Sequence record: MH791411.1
Direction: 5' to 3' (one strand)
Source of the DNA: Escherichia phage Ecwhy_1
DNA length: 64,000 bases
Position 1 is the first letter of the stretch, and every line of letters starts with the position of its first letter. Below the pieces are notes generated by a model that was not told where the DNA came from, did no database searches, and was given only the letters and a program-made list of their open reading frames with translations. Of the stretch, positions 11,527 through 62,382 are shown piece by piece. The position numbers and the translations under genes were made by a program.

Positions 11527-11560
11527 AAAAAGGAGAGCAAATGCTCTCCTTTTCTTTTTT
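11527..11560. terminator. Bidirectional terminator between convergent giant ORF and clpA-like gene
   Basis: aaaa-aggagagc-aaat-gctctcct-tttctttttt: perfect 8-bp GC-rich stem flanked by an A-run and a T-run. Confidence 0.8.
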
Positions 11561-13847
11561 ACGCAATAACTTTTTCTACTGCTTTAGTGCGTTTAGGTTT
11601 GATAGCCAATTTACCATCAATCACATCAAACGTCACGTTACCACCATTAACTAGAGAACCACACAACATCTCTTTAGCTAGTGGAACACGGATGTTTTGC
11701 TCAATAGTGCGTTTCATTGGACGTGCACCCATCCCAACTTTAACACCATTTGTTGCCAACCACTCACGTGCCGCTTTAGTCAGGGAAACTTTAACTTTGC
11801 GGTCTTTGATTTGTTCATTCAGACTACCCATGAACTTATCAATGATGCTGTCAATCGCTTCGCTGCTTAGGTCTTTGAATGTCACAATACTATCGATACG
11901 GTTGATGAATTCAGGTGGCAAGAATGCTTTAATAGCTTTATCTTGTGCTGTATCACTACCGCTCATCCCAATACTACGCTTGGTTGAATCTGCTGCACCA
12001 AGGTTAGTCGTCATAATAACAGTTACGTTATTGAAGTAAACAGTTTTACCTTGTGAACCAGTCAAACGTCCTTCGTCCAGAACCTGTAGGAAGGTTAGTA
12101 GTACTTTACGATCAGCTTTTTCGATTTCATCAAGCAACAGTACTGCATTCGGGAACTGCTCAATCTTGTCGAGTAGCAGACCGTTACCAGAATCGTGACC
12201 AACATAGCCTGGAGGTGAACCAATCAGTTTAGCAACAGTATGTTCCTGTGAAAACTCGGACATATCGAAACGAATCAGTTCGGAACCAGTTGCATCAGCC
12301 AGTGCTTTGGTAATTTCAGTTTTACCAGTACCAGATGGACCAACAAACATGAATGCACCTTGAACACTTGATTTATCACGCAGACCAGCACGAGCTACCA
12401 TCACGTTATCAACCAGTTTCTGTACTGCTTCTTCTTGACCGTATACACGAGAACGGAGTGCATCTGGTAGATTACGCATACGTTCACTTTCAGTGCAAGC
12501 AACCACGTTAATATCTAGGTTTGCGATACCTGCAACAACTTCTTGAATCAGTGCAACAGTGATGATGTTATCATCAGTTTCACGAGAACGTACTTTCGCT
12601 GCTGCCGCATCCATTAGGTCGATTGCTTTGTCAGGGAAGTGTTTGTTCTTCAGGAACTTATCACTTAGTGTAATAACTGCATCCATTGCTTCAGTACTGA
12701 ACTCTACGTTATGGAAAGTTTCATAAGTAGATTTCAAACCATTCACAATCGCACGGGTTTCATCAATTGTTGGCTCAACTACATCAATTTTCATGAAACG
12801 GCGAGTTAGTGCACTATCTTTTTCGATGTTTTTACGATATTCATCGTAAGTTGTTGCACCGATTACACGAATCTCACCACGAGATAGTGCAGGTTTGAGC
12901 ATGTTGCTCATATCCATAGAACCGTTGCTTGCTGACCCAGCACCAACCATAATATGGATTTCATCGATGAACACAATAGTGTTTTCACGTTTCTTCAGTT
13001 CTTTTAGTAGGTTATCGATACGTTCTTCGAACTCACCACGGTACTTAGTACCAGCAGTCAGTGCACCTACGTTCAGAGACAGAATTTCAACATCTTTAAG
13101 ATGCTCTGGTACTTCACCATCAGCGATTGCCTGTGCTAGACCATCAATGATTTGAGTTTTACCAACACCAGCTTCACCAGTCAGGATGGCATTCTTCTTA
13201 GTCTTACGGGCCAGAGTTTCAATCAGTGCAGAAAGCTCTTTCTGGCGACCAATCATTGGGTCAAGTTTACCTTCTTTTGCAAGTGCGGTTAGGTTAGTGG
13301 TGTAATCTTCTAAACCTTTTTGTTTGGACGATGGTTGCTGTTGTGCCACTTTTTTCTCCCCAGTTGGCTCATCACTAATGCTTTGAAGGTTGATTCCGTT
13401 GTCGATTGCTTCTACGTGCTTCTGTAGAGTTCGTGCTGCTTCAGTACAAGTGATACCCTCTTCACGCAATGCTGCTTCTAGTGCAGTATTTGGGAAGGAC
13501 AAACACTCAAACAGTACAAAATAAGCATCAATTGAGAAATCATCACGTTTAAGTTGCTCAATTACTGATTTCTTAGAAAGTTCCTGAACTACACGGTTCA
13601 CGAGAAGTGATGTGCGGTTCGCTTCATCACCATCAGCACTTTTAGGTGCATGTGGGAATGTTGTATTCTTCAGATATGCAATCAAACGACCGTGTAGGTT
13701 GTCTGCATCGATGTTCATATCTTCAAATACTGCTTTGATGCTATCGATTGTCAGTACTGTAGCACTTAGATGGTCAATAGTCAAGAATGTATGACCCAGA
13801 GAAGTTGCCAGTTCGTCGCTTTTTTTGAATAATTGGGTAAGATTCAT
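11559..13847 (-). CDS. clpA: ClpA-type double-ring AAA+ unfoldase (Clp_N + D1 + D2)
   Basis: Clp_N-like N-terminus (LTIDHLSATVL). D1 has Walker A GEAGVGKT and Walker B IVFIDEIH; D2 has GPSGTGKT and LLLDEIEKA. The C-terminal third parallels recalled E. coli ClpA (TTNLGA..KRSIGM..PEFINRIDSIV, GARPMKRTIE). About 760 aa with no long M-domain, so ClpA-like rather than ClpB-like. Track start 13871 is GTG; ATG 13847 has ttaGGAGaatacATG. Confidence 0.9.
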   Translation of the reverse strand: MNLTQLFKKSDELATSLGHTFLTIDHLSATVLTIDSIKAVFEDMNIDADNLHGRLIAYLKNTTFPHAPKSADGDEANRTSLLVNRVVQELSKKSVIEQLKRDDFSIDAYFVLFECLSFPNTALEAALREEGITCTEAARTLQKHVEAIDNGINLQSISDEPTGEKKVAQQQPSSKQKGLEDYTTNLTALAKEGKLDPMIGRQKELSALIETLARKTKKNAILTGEAGVGKTQIIDGLAQAIADGEVPEHLKDVEILSLNVGALTAGTKYRGEFEERIDNLLKELKKRENTIVFIDEIHIMVGAGSASNGSMDMSNMLKPALSRGEIRVIGATTYDEYRKNIEKDSALTRRFMKIDVVEPTIDETRAIVNGLKSTYETFHNVEFSTEAMDAVITLSDKFLKNKHFPDKAIDLMDAAAAKVRSRETDDNIITVALIQEVVAGIANLDINVVACTESERMRNLPDALRSRVYGQEEAVQKLVDNVMVARAGLRDKSSVQGAFMFVGPSGTGKTEITKALADATGSELIRFDMSEFSQEHTVAKLIGSPPGYVGHDSGNGLLLDKIEQFPNAVLLLDEIEKADRKVLLTFLQVLDEGRLTGSQGKTVYFNNVTVIMTTNLGAADSTKRSIGMSGSDTAQDKAIKAFLPPEFINRIDSIVTFKDLSSEAIDSIIDKFMGSLNEQIKDRKVKVSLTKAAREWLATNGVKVGMGARPMKRTIEQNIRVPLAKEMLCGSLVNGGNVTFDVIDGKLAIKPKRTKAVEKVIA

Positions 13848-13885
13848 GTATTCTCCTAAATGAGTAGTCACTCTAATTAATAAAC

Positions 13886-40199: not shown

Positions 40200-41609
40200 T
40201 TAGCTACGTTGACGCTTTTTGTCAGCTTCATATTCGTAGTGTACAGTTTCGCCAAATGGTGCTTGTTTGTTAGGATTACTGTGGATAACAAACAGTGTCT
40301 TACAGTAATCAGGATCACCCCATGACTGCCACGGCTCACCATCTGTAAACATAATAAGCTGTTTAGGCTTATAGTTGTCATGCTTCATATGAACCCATAC
40401 TGCTTCAAAGTCAGTACCACCACCACCTTTCACTGGATATTCGAGAATCTTACTCTCTTCACCAGTTTTGTAATCTTTCACAGTATAAACTTCAGTATCG
40501 AACGTCATGATACGGATTTTAAATTGTTTAAACTGCTTAGTGATACCCAGTACTTCACTGATGAAATCACGGAGCATATCTTCAGAGATAGAACCGGATG
40601 CATCTAGTGCAATTGCAATATCAATATCATCATCTGGTTTCATACCAGGGAAGATTGGATTCCCGTAGAATGAACCAGAACTACCAAAACCAGCACCCCA
40701 TGAACGACGATTAGGATTTTGATAAGTTGCATCAGACTTCAACCAGCTACGCAGTGTGCGGTGAAGTTTGGAACGCCAGTCAATCTTAGGTTCTTTGAAG
40801 TTGTTAATCATACGTGCGATTTCAGCAGGAGTACCACCTGCACGAGCAGCATTCATCATTGCTGTTTTGAAATCATCCATATAATCACGTTTTTGTTTAT
40901 CACTTGAACCACCTTCTTGACCTTCTTGTGGAACGTCATGCTGGTCGATTGTTGTACCTTTGCCTTTACCATCTTTGATATCACCAAAAGTACCGCGTGA
41001 TTTACCTTCACCCTCACCACTACCAGCCTGTGGATTTCCTTCACCTTCTCCGTCTTGATCCTGCTTATCTTCTTCTTCGAGAATGTTATAAATCTCTTCA
41101 GCAGTCATACCATCGTACTTTTTATCGTACAGCCATTGGCTTTGGATTTTACCAATTTTATCACGAACAAGAATCTGGTTAATTGCATAGTCAGCAGCAC
41201 GGTTATAACGCTGCGGGTCACGCATACCACGACGCAAGAAGTGGTCATATGCACAGTGAAGAATCTCATGACAGATAACTGCAATCAGGTTTTCATCGGT
41301 CAAACCTTCTGTCATTTCTTTAAGTTGTTCTTCAGTTACTTCAGGATGTTTCTCACGAATTGCTTCTTCGTATGCTGACTTTTTGGATTGGTCCTGAATA
41401 CCCATGATGAATTCTACGTTGTAGAATAAATGCTTACCATCTACAGCCAAAGTACGACACCATGTGTTGTTTGCAACTGGACGCAGACGAGAAGCCAGTA
41501 CACCAAAGAATGGGAATGTTAGCATTAAAGATGTGCGAGCTAAGATCAGACGATCTTGACATTCTTTCTGGAGAGCCGGAGTAACATCACTGAAACGTTT
41601 ATCTGACAT
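40200..41609 (-). CDS. VWA-domain protein with N-terminal HExxH putative metallopeptidase domain (DUF2201_N + DUF2201/VWA type)
   Basis: VICHEILHCAYDH (HExxH), RAADYAINQIL, MIDAS motif IALDASGSIS (DxSxS). Acidic/Gly-rich linker (EEEDKQDQDGEGEGNPQAGSGEGEG). RBS cGAGGAaatacaaATG. Confidence 0.85.
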   Translation of the reverse strand: MSDKRFSDVTPALQKECQDRLILARTSLMLTFPFFGVLASRLRPVANNTWCRTLAVDGKHLFYNVEFIMGIQDQSKKSAYEEAIREKHPEVTEEQLKEMTEGLTDENLIAVICHEILHCAYDHFLRRGMRDPQRYNRAADYAINQILVRDKIGKIQSQWLYDKKYDGMTAEEIYNILEEEDKQDQDGEGEGNPQAGSGEGEGKSRGTFGDIKDGKGKGTTIDQHDVPQEGQEGGSSDKQKRDYMDDFKTAMMNAARAGGTPAEIARMINNFKEPKIDWRSKLHRTLRSWLKSDATYQNPNRRSWGAGFGSSGSFYGNPIFPGMKPDDDIDIAIALDASGSISEDMLRDFISEVLGITKQFKQFKIRIMTFDTEVYTVKDYKTGEESKILEYPVKGGGGTDFEAVWVHMKHDNYKPKQLIMFTDGEPWQSWGDPDYCKTLFVIHSNPNKQAPFGETVHYEYEADKKRQRS

Positions 41610-41630: not shown

Positions 41631-41669
41631 AGATAAAAGAAGGATACCATGTGGTATCCTCCTTGTCAA
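41631..41669 (-). terminator. Intercistronic hairpin + T-run between MoxR and VWA genes (attenuator/partial terminator), overlapped by a weak promoter-like sequence
   Basis: Minus strand aggatacc-acat-ggtatcct followed by tcttttatc. TTGACA lies immediately upstream, with TATCCT (the hairpin 5' arm) 17 nt downstream. Confidence 0.5.
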
Positions 41670-41684
41670 CACTCTTTTTAATTA

Positions 41685-43013
41685 TTAACCAAGAGAGCGT
41701 GCTTTACGTACTAGGTCAGAGTACTTCATAACGAAGTCTTTAAACGCTGGTACATCTTTAATCGTAATCGCTACTTTATGAAGCGTGATGGTACGAATCG
41801 CCAGTACTGCCAGTTCTGCTTGAGTTGCAGAGAAGTTATGGTCTAGGAAGGTGATGAAGTTGTTGCACAGCTTACCCCAATCTTCCACTGGTAGACGTTG
41901 TTCTTGCTTCTCATTGTAGAGGTCGATAATTTTGTAAACCAGATTCAGAGTGATGAAGTAGTTCGCGGAAATATCAAGCGAAGCATCAATCTCTTTAATC
42001 TCACCCTGTAGGATGGACATGGTATCTGGTAGTTTAGCTACGTTATCAACATACTCGATGTATTCAGTTGCTACGCCTTCACCAACACGACCTGCAATCA
42101 TCGCACGGAACACTTCTTTATCAATGTTCTTAACTTTCTTCAGATCTTCGTAGCGTGCTACTGCTTCCCATGAACGTGGAGAAGTACCACCACAGTGAGA
42201 AGGATCTTGTGGGCTAAGGGTGTTGAAGTGTTTAGCACCAGTGTTGTTGATGAACGCTACAGTTGCTGGGTTCAAACGCTTACCAATCGCATAATCGTTA
42301 ATCCAATCTTGATGATAAGGAATCATTTCGATGTGGGTCATACGGTCACGCAGTGGTGTAGCTAGAGAGAACGTTACACCGCCATCAGTTTCACGGTTAC
42401 CTGCTGCGAGAATCAGTGCAGTCTTAGGTAGCTTCATCTCACCAACACAACGGTCGAGGATTAGCTGATAAGACGCTGCCTGTACAATCGGCATTGCAGA
42501 GTTGATTTCGTCAAACAGAATAACACCTTTCCAATCTGGAGACAGTTTCAGTACTTTAGGTGCTGCCCACACAACTGCTGTTTCAGCGATGTAATCTTGT
42601 GCACTAGCCAGTTCAGATTCAATCAGTTGCTTACCATCCATATCAAGGAACACTTTCTCTGGAACTGGGATACCGCGAAGGTCACTTGGTTCAATCTGAG
42701 ACAAACGGAAATCGATAAAGTTAGTGTCTTGGTCGATTAGTTTGGCTTCAAACGCTGCCAGTTCACGGCGAAGTTGATCAGCATTTTCAGTATCAGCTTC
42801 GATTTGTTGTTTCATGAACTCAATTTTTGCCACGTTATCTTTACGCAGTGGGTAGTTCTCATCAGCGTATTGACGTGCGATAGCAGATTTACCGATACCA
42901 GGGCTACCCCAAATCATCAGGCTATCTTGAATCATGTCAGCCAGTGCCATTGCTTCTTTAGCTTTCTTAGGAGTCAGTTTTACGTTCAGGATATCGTTGT
43001 TTTGAGTAGACAT
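41685..43013 (-). CDS. MoxR/CobS-like AAA+ ATPase (AAA_5 type)
   Basis: Walker A GSPGIGKS, Walker B VILFDEIN, sensor region ILAAGNRETDGG..PLRDRM. RBS caAAAGGAaaatatacATG. Confidence 0.85.
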   Translation of the reverse strand: MSTQNNDILNVKLTPKKAKEAMALADMIQDSLMIWGSPGIGKSAIARQYADENYPLRKDNVAKIEFMKQQIEADTENADQLRRELAAFEAKLIDQDTNFIDFRLSQIEPSDLRGIPVPEKVFLDMDGKQLIESELASAQDYIAETAVVWAAPKVLKLSPDWKGVILFDEINSAMPIVQAASYQLILDRCVGEMKLPKTALILAAGNRETDGGVTFSLATPLRDRMTHIEMIPYHQDWINDYAIGKRLNPATVAFINNTGAKHFNTLSPQDPSHCGGTSPRSWEAVARYEDLKKVKNIDKEVFRAMIAGRVGEGVATEYIEYVDNVAKLPDTMSILQGEIKEIDASLDISANYFITLNLVYKIIDLYNEKQEQRLPVEDWGKLCNNFITFLDHNFSATQAELAVLAIRTITLHKVAITIKDVPAFKDFVMKYSDLVRKARSLG

Positions 43014-43051
43014 GTATATTTTCCTTTTGTTGGATAAAATCGTTTAGGTTT

Positions 43052-43080
43052 CTATTATAGCCAATCCGTGGGCAAAAGTA
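43052..43080 (-). promoter_or_regulatory. Proximal sigma70-type promoter (P3) of the MoxR-VWA operon
   Basis: Minus strand TTTACT-tttgcccacggattggc-TATAAT (17-nt spacer). The -35 overlaps the foot of the hairpin. Confidence 0.45.
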
Positions 43081-43120
43081 AAGGAACTGTGTTAAAAGAA
43101 TTTTTAACTTATCAGTTCCT
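43068..43120 (-). terminator. Long leader hairpin with U-rich tail (terminator/attenuator) downstream of P1/P2
   Basis: 10-bp outer stem (aaaggaactg/cagttccttt) plus 7-bp inner stem (gttaaaa/ttttaac) with a 4-nt loop. On the minus strand it is followed by ACTTTTGCCC. Confidence 0.5.
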
Positions 43121-43186
43121 TTGTTACTTCATGAATCATCCGTGTATTTAAAAAGGCATTTCTCTTTGCCGTCTTGATGTGGTCAT
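43068..43186 (-). ncRNA. Candidate ~120-nt small RNA / leader transcript (P2 start to hairpin terminator)
   Basis: Consensus promoter P2 followed ~110 nt later by a terminator-like hairpin, with no convincing ORF between them (only an 11-codon ATG frame without SD). Purely structural inference. Confidence 0.2.
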
Positions 43187-43230
43187 TATATCACATCGTT
43201 CAGGCTTGTCAACAACTTTTTTATTTCTTT
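43187..43230 (-). promoter_or_regulatory. Consensus sigma70-type promoter P2 (copy 1 of a duplicated 44-bp cassette)
   Basis: Minus strand TTGACA-agcctgaacgatgtga-TATAAT (-35 at 43215-43220, -10 at 43193-43198, TGa extended -10). About 38/44 nt identical to the copy at 43271-43314. Confidence 0.75.
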
Positions 43231-43270
43231 TTCAATCTCACATCTTGTGATTTTGAAAACTTGCTTCGTG

Positions 43271-43314
43271 GTGGTCATTATAACACATCATTCGGCGTTG
43301 TCAACATCTTTTTT
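43271..43314 (-). promoter_or_regulatory. Consensus sigma70-type promoter P1 (copy 2 of the duplicated cassette)
   Basis: Minus strand TTGACA-acgccgaatgatgtgt-TATAAT (-35 at 43299-43304, -10 at 43277-43282). Lies 84 nt upstream of P2. Confidence 0.75.
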
Positions 43315-43329
43315 TCTTTATTTTCGAAG

Positions 43330-43707
43330 CTACATGTGCATCGAAAATAACATTCTAAAATCATCACCACACAATGTTAACTCTGTAACTATCATTGCGT
43401 CCGAGAGGTATATGTACTGCCCTTCTACATAGTAGGGTGAAGTACATATCCTATCAAGCGATGTAAAGATTATAGAACTTTTGAACTCTCTTTGCAAGGG
43501 GATTTTTGTAAATTCGTAAAGAATGTTTTCTTTACAAATTGTATATCCAAACTTGCTAAGTCTTAAACCACCGCCAGTTCTGAAATTTTCAAAAATTGAC
43601 ATCAGAAGCATACGGTCTGTTAATTCAGCGTCTGATCCATGTACTTCTCTAACTTTTAAAAGTACATCGTTTTGAAATTCAGTACTGTTGTGTGGTTCAG
43701 GAATCAT
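43330..43707 (-). CDS. Hypothetical protein (125 aa)
   Basis: Last gene of the long leftward late operon. An SD-like GGGGA sits upstream of the ATG. Confidence 0.6.
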   Translation of the reverse strand: MIPEPHNSTEFQNDVLLKVREVHGSDAELTDRMLLMSIFENFRTGGGLRLSKFGYTICKENILYEFTKIPLQREFKSSIIFTSLDRICTSPYYVEGQYIYLSDAMIVTELTLCGDDFRMLFSMHM

Positions 43708-61236: not shown

Positions 61237-61418
61237 AAACAAATCTCATAGCGGTTTGTGTTTGGATTGTAGCAATAGGTATCATTAATTTTAACACCAG
61301 GTTTAAGTGTTATTGTTGTTCCTACTTCAGTACTGGGTTCTGCATCACAATAAATCATCACACCAACGCCACAGATTAAAGCTAAGATACAAATAATAGC
61401 ACATATTGTATATTCCAT
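61233..61418 (-). CDS. Small membrane protein (61 aa)
   Basis: MEYTICAIICILALICGVGVMIYC is one hydrophobic helix, followed by a Cys-containing soluble tail. ATG 61418 overlaps the micro-ORF B stop (TGATG); the track start 61436 lies inside micro-ORF B. Confidence 0.55.
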   Translation of the reverse strand: MEYTICAIICILALICGVGVMIYCDAEPSTEVGTTITLKPGVKINDTYCYNPNTNRYEICL

Positions 61419-61543
61419 CACTCCCCCATCAGCCAATCAAAGAGACGTTCCAAGAAGCCATTAGGCTTGTATTCTGGTTCTTTGTTCACGTCGGTTTCTT
61501 GTTCATAAACACCCAAATCTTCTTCAAGTATAATTGTATTCAT
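61418..61543 (-). CDS. Unannotated acidic micro-ORF B (41 aa), paralog of micro-ORF A
   Basis: The ATG overlaps the upstream stop (TAATG). Peptide MNTIILEEDLGVYEQETDVNKEPEYKPNGFLERLFDWLMGE*. The stop overlaps the next ATG (TGATG). Confidence 0.6.
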   Translation of the reverse strand: MNTIILEEDLGVYEQETDVNKEPEYKPNGFLERLFDWLMGE

Positions 61544-62320: not shown

Positions 62321-62352
62321 TAAGAAAAGGGACAGAATAATCTCTGTCCCTT
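62321..62352 (-). terminator. Rho-independent terminator after hpf
   Basis: Minus strand aagggacag-agattatt-ctgtccctt followed by TTcTTat. Confidence 0.65.
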
Positions 62353-62353
62353 T

Positions 62354-62382
62354 ATTATATCTTACTCTTCGTCTTCAGTCAA
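62354..62382 (-). promoter_or_regulatory. sigma70-type promoter straddling the hpf stop codon
   Basis: Minus strand TTGACT-gaagacgaagagtaaga-TATAAT (17-nt spacer). The predicted start site falls inside the 5' arm of the terminator hairpin. Confidence 0.55.

Follow-up and report, generated by a model that had tools for sequence, protein, structure and literature searches.

A conserved leader with a putative leaky or regulated terminator precedes a MoxR-like ATPase gene in Asteriusvirus and related jumbo phages

The window analysed here, a stretch of 64,000 nucleotides (nt) from Escherichia phage Ecwhy_1 (MH791411.1), contains a non-coding leader upstream of a gene encoding a MoxR-like AAA+ ATPase, in which two promoters, P1 and P2, are followed by a hairpin, T1, with the appearance of an intrinsic terminator (Table 1). 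All features of the leader are on the minus strand. It is bordered upstream by a gene for a 125 amino acid (aa) protein, and the ATPase gene is in turn followed by one encoding a VWA-like protein. An earlier note on this DNA, made from the sequence alone, described the gap as the longest non-coding one in the window, at 315 bp; it is indeed the longest between open reading frames (ORFs) of at least 70 aa, but extends over 316 nt (43014-43329). The 551 bases around the leader are 100% identical to the equivalent sequences of Escherichia phages EC.P1, fEgEco12, WPEC3 and WPEC5, and 86-87% identical to those of PBECO4, 121Q, G17 and phAPEC6; to judge by sequence, the source of the window is an Asteriusvirus, a jumbo myovirus of about 350 kb resembling the jumbo coliphages PBECO4 and 121Q.

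Both P1 and P2 match the sigma-70 consensus in all twelve hexamer positions, with the same 16 nt spacer and a TG extension upstream of the -10 element, in agreement with their earlier designation as promoters. P2 is a tandem duplicate of the P1 unit, the two lying in a 55 nt direct repeat (43179-43233 and 43271-43325) that is 82% identical and has a period of 92 nt. P1 is retained in Asteriusvirus and in the RaK2-like phages, from which P2 is missing. In phage SP27 (record L014, 407-818) there are three copies of the promoter unit rather than two, owing to an extra tandem copy of approximately 96 nt that includes a P2-type promoter; hence the number of units in the array rises and falls within the genus. 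Only one further site in the 64 kb, at 13913-13886 on the minus strand, is a perfect sigma-70 promoter that has a TG extension; it leads directly to a Shine-Dalgarno (SD) sequence and ATG with no hairpin between them, and the leader is therefore exceptional within the window. Transcripts terminating at the end of the U-tract (around 43072) are predicted to be about 107 nt long if initiated at P2 (around 43178) and about 199 nt if initiated at P1 (around 43270), which agrees with the 110-200 nt anticipated in the earlier note.

T1 consists of a stable, G+C-containing stem-loop with a U-rich tract directly 3' of it, as is expected of an intrinsic terminator. Its outer arms form a perfect 10 nt inverted repeat, and its fold, at -15.4 kcal/mol (z = -3.6), was equalled in stability by none of 200 shuffled sequences and falls inside the range of the operon-end terminators of the window (-13.5 to -19.4 kcal/mol). 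The tail after the stem, UUUACUUUUG, carries an AC interruption in the window, and the TTTACTTTTG portion of it is invariant in Asteriusvirus and the RaK2-like phages. A simple terminator scanner misses T1 solely because its 'loop' exceeds 8 nt. The two-part architecture, with 17 bp in all, had been recognised before, although the hairpin had been placed at 43120-43078 rather than at the position given in Table 1. One orthologue of T1 is already known as a predicted terminator: the record of phage vB_EcoM_G17 (MK327931), 86% identical in this region, lists an ARNold 'putative transcriptional terminator, -9.20' at 228253-228289.

Orthologous intergenic regions were compared from 16 annotated phage records, 18 IMG/VR contigs and 14 metagenome contigs, with ATPase identities of 54-100%. 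These represent around 20 distinct lineages, including RaK2, K64-1, SE_PL, pEa_SNUABM_47 (pEa47), CBB, GAP32 and metagenomic contigs. The order of elements is the same in all of them: the 125 aa gene, a promoter with an extended -10 element, after a further 30-110 nt the hairpin and its U-tract, and, 50-90 nt beyond these, the SD sequence and ATG. The promoter itself varies in type, being of the TTGACA kind in Asteriusvirus and Alcyoneusvirus and having a TGAAACG box in the CBB-, GAP32- and pEa47-type phages, a class described as 'divergent RpoD-like' in CBB (PMC5259590). Its copy number differs as well: most lineages carry a single copy, whereas Asteriusvirus has two and SP27 three. In the CBB-, GAP32- and pEa47-type sequences (L020, L021, L019 and related, at approximately 730-760), the TGAAACG box overlaps the TGA stop codon of the 125 aa gene, and its distance from the -10 element is fixed (TGAAACG-N16-TATAAT, with TATACT as the -10 hexamer in contigs L050 and L053).

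The stem of T1 differs greatly between these lineages while remaining paired. The arms are AAGGAACUG/CAGUUCCUU in the window, AAGGCACUG/CAGUGCCUU in SE_PL and pEa47, AAGACACUG/CAGUGUCUU in L024 and L026, AAAGCACUGA/UCAGUGCUUU in CBB and GAP32, AAAGCACUGG/CCAGUGCUUU in L035, AAAGCACAGC/GCUGUGCUUU in L046 and AAGGCUCC/GGAGCCUU in L050 and L053; the RaK2 stem, GGACUG/CAGUCC, reflects a matched deletion in both arms. The stem can be followed through the series GGAACUG/CAGUUCC, GGACUG/CAGUCC, GGCACUG/CAGUGCC, GACACUG/CAGUGUC, AGCACUGA/UCAGUGCU, AGCACAGC/GCUGUGCU and GGCUCC/GGAGCC, and the alignments indicate that T1 covaries, up to complete replacement of its sequence. Depending on the lineage, 2 to 25 nt separate the outer arms, and a U-tract (CUCUUUUG, UCUUUUUAU or CUUUUUUC in relatives) is found on the sense strand of the ATPase gene in every one.

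A covariance model of 19 sequences gave a single match per locus, always upstream of the ATPase gene, scoring 49-79 bits (74 bits for T1 of the window). In the alignment derived from the model, 91% of cells are paired and compensatory changes are found in six of the 14 pairs overall; for the T1 stem the figure is four of ten pairs. Double changes occupy 32 cells, as against 10.9 ± 2.1 in shuffled alignments, none of 500 of which reached the observed score, and registers slid along the alignment pair at only 20-51%. RNAalifold, applied to a MAFFT alignment that had not been fitted to the structure, independently predicted a 9 bp stem with three compensatory pairs. Folding and covariation in related phages, put forward as a check when the hairpin was first noticed, have hence borne out both its stability and its terminator-like appearance; all relatives examined have the hairpin in the equivalent position, and changes in one arm are compensated in the other.

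The third promoter-like motif of the leader, P3, lies partly within the tail of T1. By itself it is near chance level, as the identical pair of hexamers also occurs inside an ORF at 16519-16491. Its -10 element is TATAAT in all Asteriusvirus sequences, the divergent A4 and JNE01 included; the corresponding positions read TATCAT in the RaK2-like phages and GATAAA in SE_PL. P3 may be a weak, lineage-specific promoter that bypasses T1. The earlier note had correctly observed the motif and the overlap of its -35 element with the foot of the hairpin, albeit with the position given as 43052-43080, and had proposed, as one of two readings, that P1 and P2 make a short RNA while P3 makes the mRNA. As a general logic the latter does not hold: the -10 element of P3 is intact only in Asteriusvirus, and in CBB, pEa47 and L053 the scanner found no promoter-like site on the sense strand between the terminator and the ATG.

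In these same three lineages the scanner calls the site orthologous to T1 a terminator, with stems of 8-11 bp that include four or five G-C pairs, and this orthologue is predicted to be a textbook intrinsic terminator. Since P3 has no counterpart there, a transcript can reach the ATPase gene only by crossing the terminator, be its start immediately upstream or in the preceding operon. The ATPase itself is expressed, a protein of 49.5 kDa having been detected in phAPEC6 virions (PMC7247149). If passage is obligatory and the ATPase is made, the terminator should be leaky or regulated, which favours the second of the two earlier readings, that of an attenuator or leaky terminator. The pair of readings was nevertheless the right frame, given a terminator-like hairpin behind promoters that look real.

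Two GGA motifs flank the terminator. Upstream, an A-N-GGA motif (GGA-1 in the window) is found 8-20 nt before the terminator in 17 of 20 lineages, whereas it occurs in 6.8% of random 30 nt windows. Downstream, a small stem-loop begins 1-3 nt past the U-tract, with a loop that is invariably (N)GGA and usually A-U/C-GGA-U. The GGA of this loop (GGA-2) is invariant in the 19-sequence alignment and present in all lineages but L050 and L053, being preceded by A-N in each except JNE01. The stems around it are 4-10 bp long in most lineages and have more than nine different sequences, among them GCC/GGC, GCUU/AAGC, GCUUA/UAAGC, GCUUA/UGAGC, CUCAA/UUGAG, CAAA/UUUG, UCAAA/UUUGA, CCAAA/UUUGG and UCAGA/UCUGA; a stem of at least 4 bp is formed in 19 of 24 sequences, compared to 16.6% of GGA sites picked at random from the window. 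Arms that vary while the centre stays the same are typical of RNA loops recognised by proteins, and the stem-loop may represent a site of this type. Owing to its location just after the U-tract, it would be present only in the read-through RNA. A distance of 43 nt separates GGA-2 from the GGA in the SD sequence, which has an AUCCAA(C)AAAAGGAAAA context common even to L050, the most divergent lineage. Hairpins with an A-N-GGA loop are not enriched in the window as a whole (26 observed, 35 ± 5 in shuffles).

The reading to which we incline, with modest confidence, is that the region is a conserved 5' leader in which a leaky or factor-regulated intrinsic terminator, T1, gates expression of the ATPase/VWA pair. 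The host RNA polymerase carrying sigma-70 would initiate at P1 and P2, a tandem pair of great strength, and T1 would end most of these transcripts as short RNAs of the sizes given above, with a minority reading past it to become ATPase mRNA. In Asteriusvirus alone, P3, made from the U-tract of T1 and adjoining sequence, would add a weak basal supply independent of the terminator. The read-through RNA, but not that from P3, would carry the A-N-GGA loop hairpin ahead of the AAGGAA ribosome binding site, most simply as a protein site for post-transcriptional control. Some 7 kb of structural (virion) genes on the same strand precede T1 with no terminator-like site between them, the scanner having found no other intergenic one on the minus strand from 50704 to T1. 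It would hence stop transcripts from this block as well, insulating the ATPase/VWA pair from the operon upstream.

In functional layout, this arrangement appears closest to the promoter-proximal terminators of phages such as lambda and to the leader attenuators of bacteria. The P_R' - 6S RNA - t_R' module of lambda yields a short RNA by default, and the late genes are reached through antitermination by Q, which involves a Q-binding element and a sigma-dependent pause close to the promoter; no counterpart of these was identified here, in a comparison of layout that included no search for Q-like proteins. Comparing layout alone, both have a strong sigma-70 promoter, an intrinsic terminator within about 60-200 nt and downstream genes served by read-through; however, the cargo here is a two-gene ATPase/VWA pair rather than a whole late operon, and the lambda module lacks the tandemly duplicated promoters and the bypass promoter of Asteriusvirus. 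With bacterial attenuators the leader shares an intrinsic terminator that lies between promoter and start codon and is conserved with covariation, but unlike those controlled by leader peptides, riboswitches or proteins, it has no conserved leader peptide or antiterminator helix and no match in Rfam.

Several observations weigh against a leaky or regulated terminator. The leaders compared contain no conserved antiterminator pairing, leader peptide or known riboswitch, and simple attenuation of so strong a promoter seems wasteful. The U-tract of the window is discontinuous (UUUACUUUU) and follows a long hairpin built in two parts, so that the efficiency of termination at T1 could be low. In the clade of the window the small GGA hairpin has a degenerate form, with three G-C pairs next to a C.U mismatch (in ph0011, 2 bp), and it is absent from L050 and L053, the most divergent contigs, which retain the promoter and terminator; the conserved core is therefore the promoter and terminator, and the GGA hairpin is widespread rather than universal. 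RNAalifold did not predict this small helix on its own. The alignment from which covariation was scored had been fitted, through the model, to the structure proposed, and its lineages are related by descent. In the literature searched, no transcriptome of an Asteriusvirus, Alcyoneusvirus or Mimasvirus phage was found. Finally, the duplication of the promoter in Asteriusvirus and its triplication in SP27 fit selection for more of the short RNA at least as well as they fit selection for additional mRNA.

This last point leads to the possibility that P1/P2 and T1 together constitute a stand-alone small RNA gene, its product, about 107 or 199 nt long here but about 55-60 nt for the majority of genera, being one which would act in trans by base pairing or as a protein decoy, with read-through being incidental. 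The unit is non-coding, delimited by its own promoter and terminator and conserved in every lineage, and the 5' part of the predicted RNA keeps a UUAAGA near its start as well as the A-N-GGA motif; being mostly unpaired and followed by a terminator hairpin with a U-tail, it has the usual build of an enterobacterial small RNA, and the multiplied promoter units suit selection on its dosage. Elsewhere in the window, moreover, promoters overlap or follow terminators (T2; 62382-62326), by which standard T1 and P3 would be a normal pair and P1 and P2 the oddity. We nevertheless think a dedicated small RNA gene unlikely, if worth keeping in view, because the lineages lacking P3 have no other recognisable promoter for the ATPase, such that read-through cannot be incidental there, and because conservation extends beyond the terminator into the covarying GGA-loop hairpin. 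Nor does the RNA match an Rfam family, and blastn comparison of both strands of the leader with 5,426 E. coli genomes found neither similarity nor complementarity indicative of a target or mimic. The segment between P2 and the hairpin also varies greatly in length and sequence between genera. A trans-acting RNA and a leaky or regulated terminator are not mutually exclusive.

It is rather improbable that T1 is a plain operon-end terminator that stops the upstream block alone, the promoters lying before it through packing against the preceding gene and the ATPase depending on leakage or P3. Consistent with this are the position of T1 at the end of the 7 kb structural block, the overlap of the TGAAACG box with the preceding stop codon in CBB-type phages (PMC5259590) and an AAGG...CCUU-UCUUUU style shared with other terminators of the window. 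Yet the order of promoter before terminator persists down to 54% protein identity, despite full replacement of the stem and a change of promoter class from TTGACA to TGAAACG, and a layout that did nothing but waste a perfect promoter would not be expected to last so long; the conserved GGA motifs on both sides would also be left unexplained. Far less probable still is an RNA processing or stability element, in which the two-part hairpin would be a site for an RNase III-type enzyme instead of a terminator. In T7, the tandem A1-A3 promoters of the early region precede the R0.3 RNase III site, and the leader likewise has tandem strong early promoters ahead of a hairpin that, in the window and the RaK2-like phages, is long, has an internal loop and superficially resembles the T7 sites. 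However, the orthologues of the SE_PL, pEa47, CBB, GAP32 and L050 types are simple stems of 8-11 bp with a 2-8 nt loop and a U-tract, too short for a typical substrate; the SE_PL variant has a 9 bp outer stem around a small inner hairpin, and the U-tract is the feature that is invariant across lineages. We give least credence of all to a DNA operator, an inverted repeat bound by a dimeric regulator of P3 or P2, for which the perfect 10 bp arms overlapping the -35 element of P3 might speak. The arms change yet stay complementary, and the variable distance between them, together with the U-tract that always follows on the sense strand, argues for an RNA hairpin rather than a pair of protein half-sites.

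Table 1. Coordinates of features in and around the leader of the ATPase gene (positions within the 64,000 nt window)
Feature	Position	Strand	Description
125 aa gene	43330-43707	-	upstream border of the leader gap
P1	43304-43277	-	TTGACA-N16-TATAAT with TG, 12/12; A-tract before; predicted start ~43270
Inverted repeat I1	43229-43259	-	imperfect hairpin, 14 nt arms; between P1 and P2, in the P1 transcript
P2	43212-43185	-	TTGACA-N16-TATAAT with TG, 12/12; predicted start ~43178
GGA-1	43136-43144 (GGA 43141-43139)	-	A-N-GGA motif CACGGAUGA; 14 nt before the T1 hairpin
T1	43122-43080	-	putative terminator hairpin; 10 + 7 bp around a 4x1 internal loop, 4 nt AUUC apical loop
T1 tail	43071-43082	-	U-rich, UUUACUUUUGCC; doubles as the -35 element of P3
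P3	43082-43054	-	TTTACT-N17-TATAAT, 10/12, no TG; overlaps the foot of the T1 hairpin
Small stem-loop with GGA-2	43060-43073 (GGA 43067-43065)	-	GCC-CACGGAUU-GGC; in the P3 spacer
SD and ATG of the ATPase gene	43011-43025 (SD GGA 43024-43022; ATG 43013-43011)	-	Shine-Dalgarno sequence AAGGAA
MoxR-like AAA+ ATPase gene	41685-43013	-	442 aa, N4 gp24-like; downstream of the leader
T2	41637-41664	-	terminator-like hairpin between the ATPase and VWA-like genes; 12 pairs, -17.5 kcal/mol, z = -5.2, tail UUUUAUCUU
VWA-like gene	40200-41609	-	DUF2201_N/DUF2201; next gene after the ATPase

The known hosts of these phages are all Enterobacterales, which have CsrA/RsmA, and the GGA motifs resemble the sites of these proteins. 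CsrA binds A(N)GGA, specifically [A/C]UGGA, in apical hairpin loops according to cross-linking and immunoprecipitation sequencing (CLIP-seq) in Salmonella (PMC5207318), and the AUGGA and ACGGA loops of the leaders fit this motif. As in the hcnA SD hairpin and Salmonella sopD2, there are at least two GGA motifs, one in the SD sequence and one that, in most lineages, is presented in an apical loop. The 9-mer containing GGA-1 in the window, CACGGAUGA, exactly matches the core of the hcnA SD RNA, GGGCUUCACGGAUGAAGCCC, a high-affinity ligand of RsmE (PMC13287468). Against the likeness, most lineages lack the ACA that precedes GGA with 100% conservation in the consensus RUACARGGAUGU, obtained by systematic evolution of ligands by exponential enrichment (SELEX; PMC4347634), and the hairpin is degenerate or missing in the lineages mentioned above. 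No CsrA homologue was found in these phages at the sensitivity of tblastn, and the 88 phage records with CsrA include no Asteriusvirus or relative, one Erwinia record among them being unexamined; the reader of the loop would hence be a host protein or another phage protein. A tentative, and on present evidence doubtful, scheme is that the conserved A-N-GGA of the short RNA, made in large amounts from two or three tandem consensus promoters, titrates or recruits host CsrA early in infection, while the loop hairpin and the SD GGA put translation of the ATPase/VWA pair under its control. In a variant of this, a phage RNA-binding protein with CsrA-like loop specificity would take the place of CsrA. 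The similarity is a resemblance, and should be treated as a lead rather than a result.

Other candidates for the element were rejected. Searching the whole 64 kb against Rfam for riboswitches and cis-regulatory RNAs gave no match at gathering thresholds, and a 451 nt region searched at E ≤ 10 returned only chance-level matches (at most 23 bits, E of at least 0.3); a scan for tRNA and tmRNA genes found none. Control through a leader peptide was discounted, with mini-ORFs that differ or are absent between lineages and no conserved antiterminator helix. The mini-ORFs of relatives (MIHEVTKELIS*, MIH*, MNY*, MD*) are dissimilar, in keeping with the earlier statement that the leader holds no credible ORF, and a 30-codon ORF at 43278-43186 begins inside the -10 element of P1 and lacks its ATG in G17-type phages. 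A possible antiterminator, CCUUU/AAAGG, upstream of the 5' arm is, on inspection, confined to Asteriusvirus, broken in K64-1 and absent from other genera, and the long-range helix GGAUGA/UUAUCC of the minimum-energy fold of the window is not conserved in RaK2. A replication origin at the tandem promoters and AT-rich stretch was also discounted: the turning point of the cumulative GC skew lies not at 43 kb but at about 38 kb, where the genes change orientation. Host mimicry or an antisense function was likewise set aside, the leader having no blastn match in the E. coli genomes, as was a relationship to ncRNA003 of the distant relative PA5oct, known from RNA sequencing (RNA-seq), which is not adjacent to the ATPase gene of that phage. 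When the covariance model was considered as a genome-wide element, its further matches in the window (62369-62312, 57890-57828 and 40203-40137, at 22-29 bits) proved to be ordinary terminators with the next SD sequence directly after them.

Regulation in jumbo phages of the RaK2, PBECO4 and CBB types is almost unstudied; the genome papers searched describe no promoters or terminators, or give motif lists only. Those on RaK2, fEgEco12 and phAPEC6 contain no RNA-seq or promoter descriptions and that on CBB gives promoter motif classes alone, and neither they nor the G17 record describe the upstream promoters, the conservation across genera or the GGA motifs. What is new here is the position of the hairpin behind promoters, its covarying conservation in six genera or more, the GGA motifs on either side of it and the bypass promoter found in one lineage. 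The leader is a concrete control element shared across genera, and the MoxR/VWA pair behind it, which has no assigned function, is itself conserved in phages ranging from N4-like ones to jumbo phages. Were read-through to be regulated, the element would mark a temporal switch in these phages; were the GGA motifs to bind CsrA, a virulent jumbo phage would be linked to a global regulator of its host, and the module coupled to carbon and growth-state signalling. If neither is the case, it would still be a well-conserved leaky terminator, and annotators should expect units with a promoter before a terminator in these genomes.

The products of the neighbouring genes have limited annotation. The ATPase matches Pfam AAA and, weakly, AAA_3, as well as phrog_1297 (ATPase), and is labelled N4 gp24-like in the records of RaK2 and Muenster; the VWA-like protein matches DUF2201_N (3e-36) and DUF2201 (1e-21). 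The 125 aa protein belongs to a PHROG family of unknown function. It is named 'transcriptional regulator HdfR' in the fEgEco12 record (L002, 2244-2621), but a Pfam search gave no match, and its candidacy as a regulator was dropped. In the RaK2 record (L003, 1823) the start of the ATPase gene is annotated 60 nt downstream of that in sister records (1275 as against 1335 nt), and in Salmonella phage SD-15_S21 (L011, 578-805) a coding sequence annotated on the opposite strand over the promoter region is not conserved and is probably spurious.

Between P1 and P2, the inverted repeat I1 is 86% complementary with a 3 nt loop; it is without a U-tract, is not terminator-like and is partly kept in G17-type phages. 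The 770 aa ORF (11559-13871, minus strand) behind the promoter at 13913-13886 begins MNLTQLFKKSDELATSLGHTFLTIDHLSATVL..., which, judged by eye, we take to be Clp N-domain-like; if this is true, both genes with perfect promoters in the window encode ATPases of the AAA+ type. The runner-up among the gaps, 300 nt at 61243-61542 on the minus strand, contains at least two short ORFs below the 70 aa cutoff, one beginning ATGAATACAATTATACTTGAAGAA and the other, which has a hydrophobic stretch, ATGGAATATACAATATGTGCT; a TG-extended promoter-like site at 61587-61559 precedes them. The T4-type late-promoter octamer TATAAATA is absent from both strands of the window (1-64000), for which dinucleotide shuffles predict 7.0 ± 2.8 occurrences; in relatives of the CBB type, ATAAATA is reported as the motif used ahead of structural genes (PMC5259590).

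Together, T1 and T2 bracket the ATPase gene, and the orthologue of T2 is annotated as a terminator in phage Muenster. T2 is also overlapped by a promoter-like sequence, TTGACA-N17-TATCCT (41637-41669, minus strand), with the -35 element just before the stem and the -10 element in its 3' arm. At 62326-62382, on the same strand, TTGACT-N17-TATAAT (11/12) ends directly before a terminator hairpin, AAAGGGACAGAG...CUGUCCCUUU; transcripts from it would begin inside the stem and so escape termination, and the SD sequence of the next gene (UGGAG) lies directly past the U-tract. With T1 and P3, these pairs suggest that promoters overlapping terminators are a recurring design in this genome.

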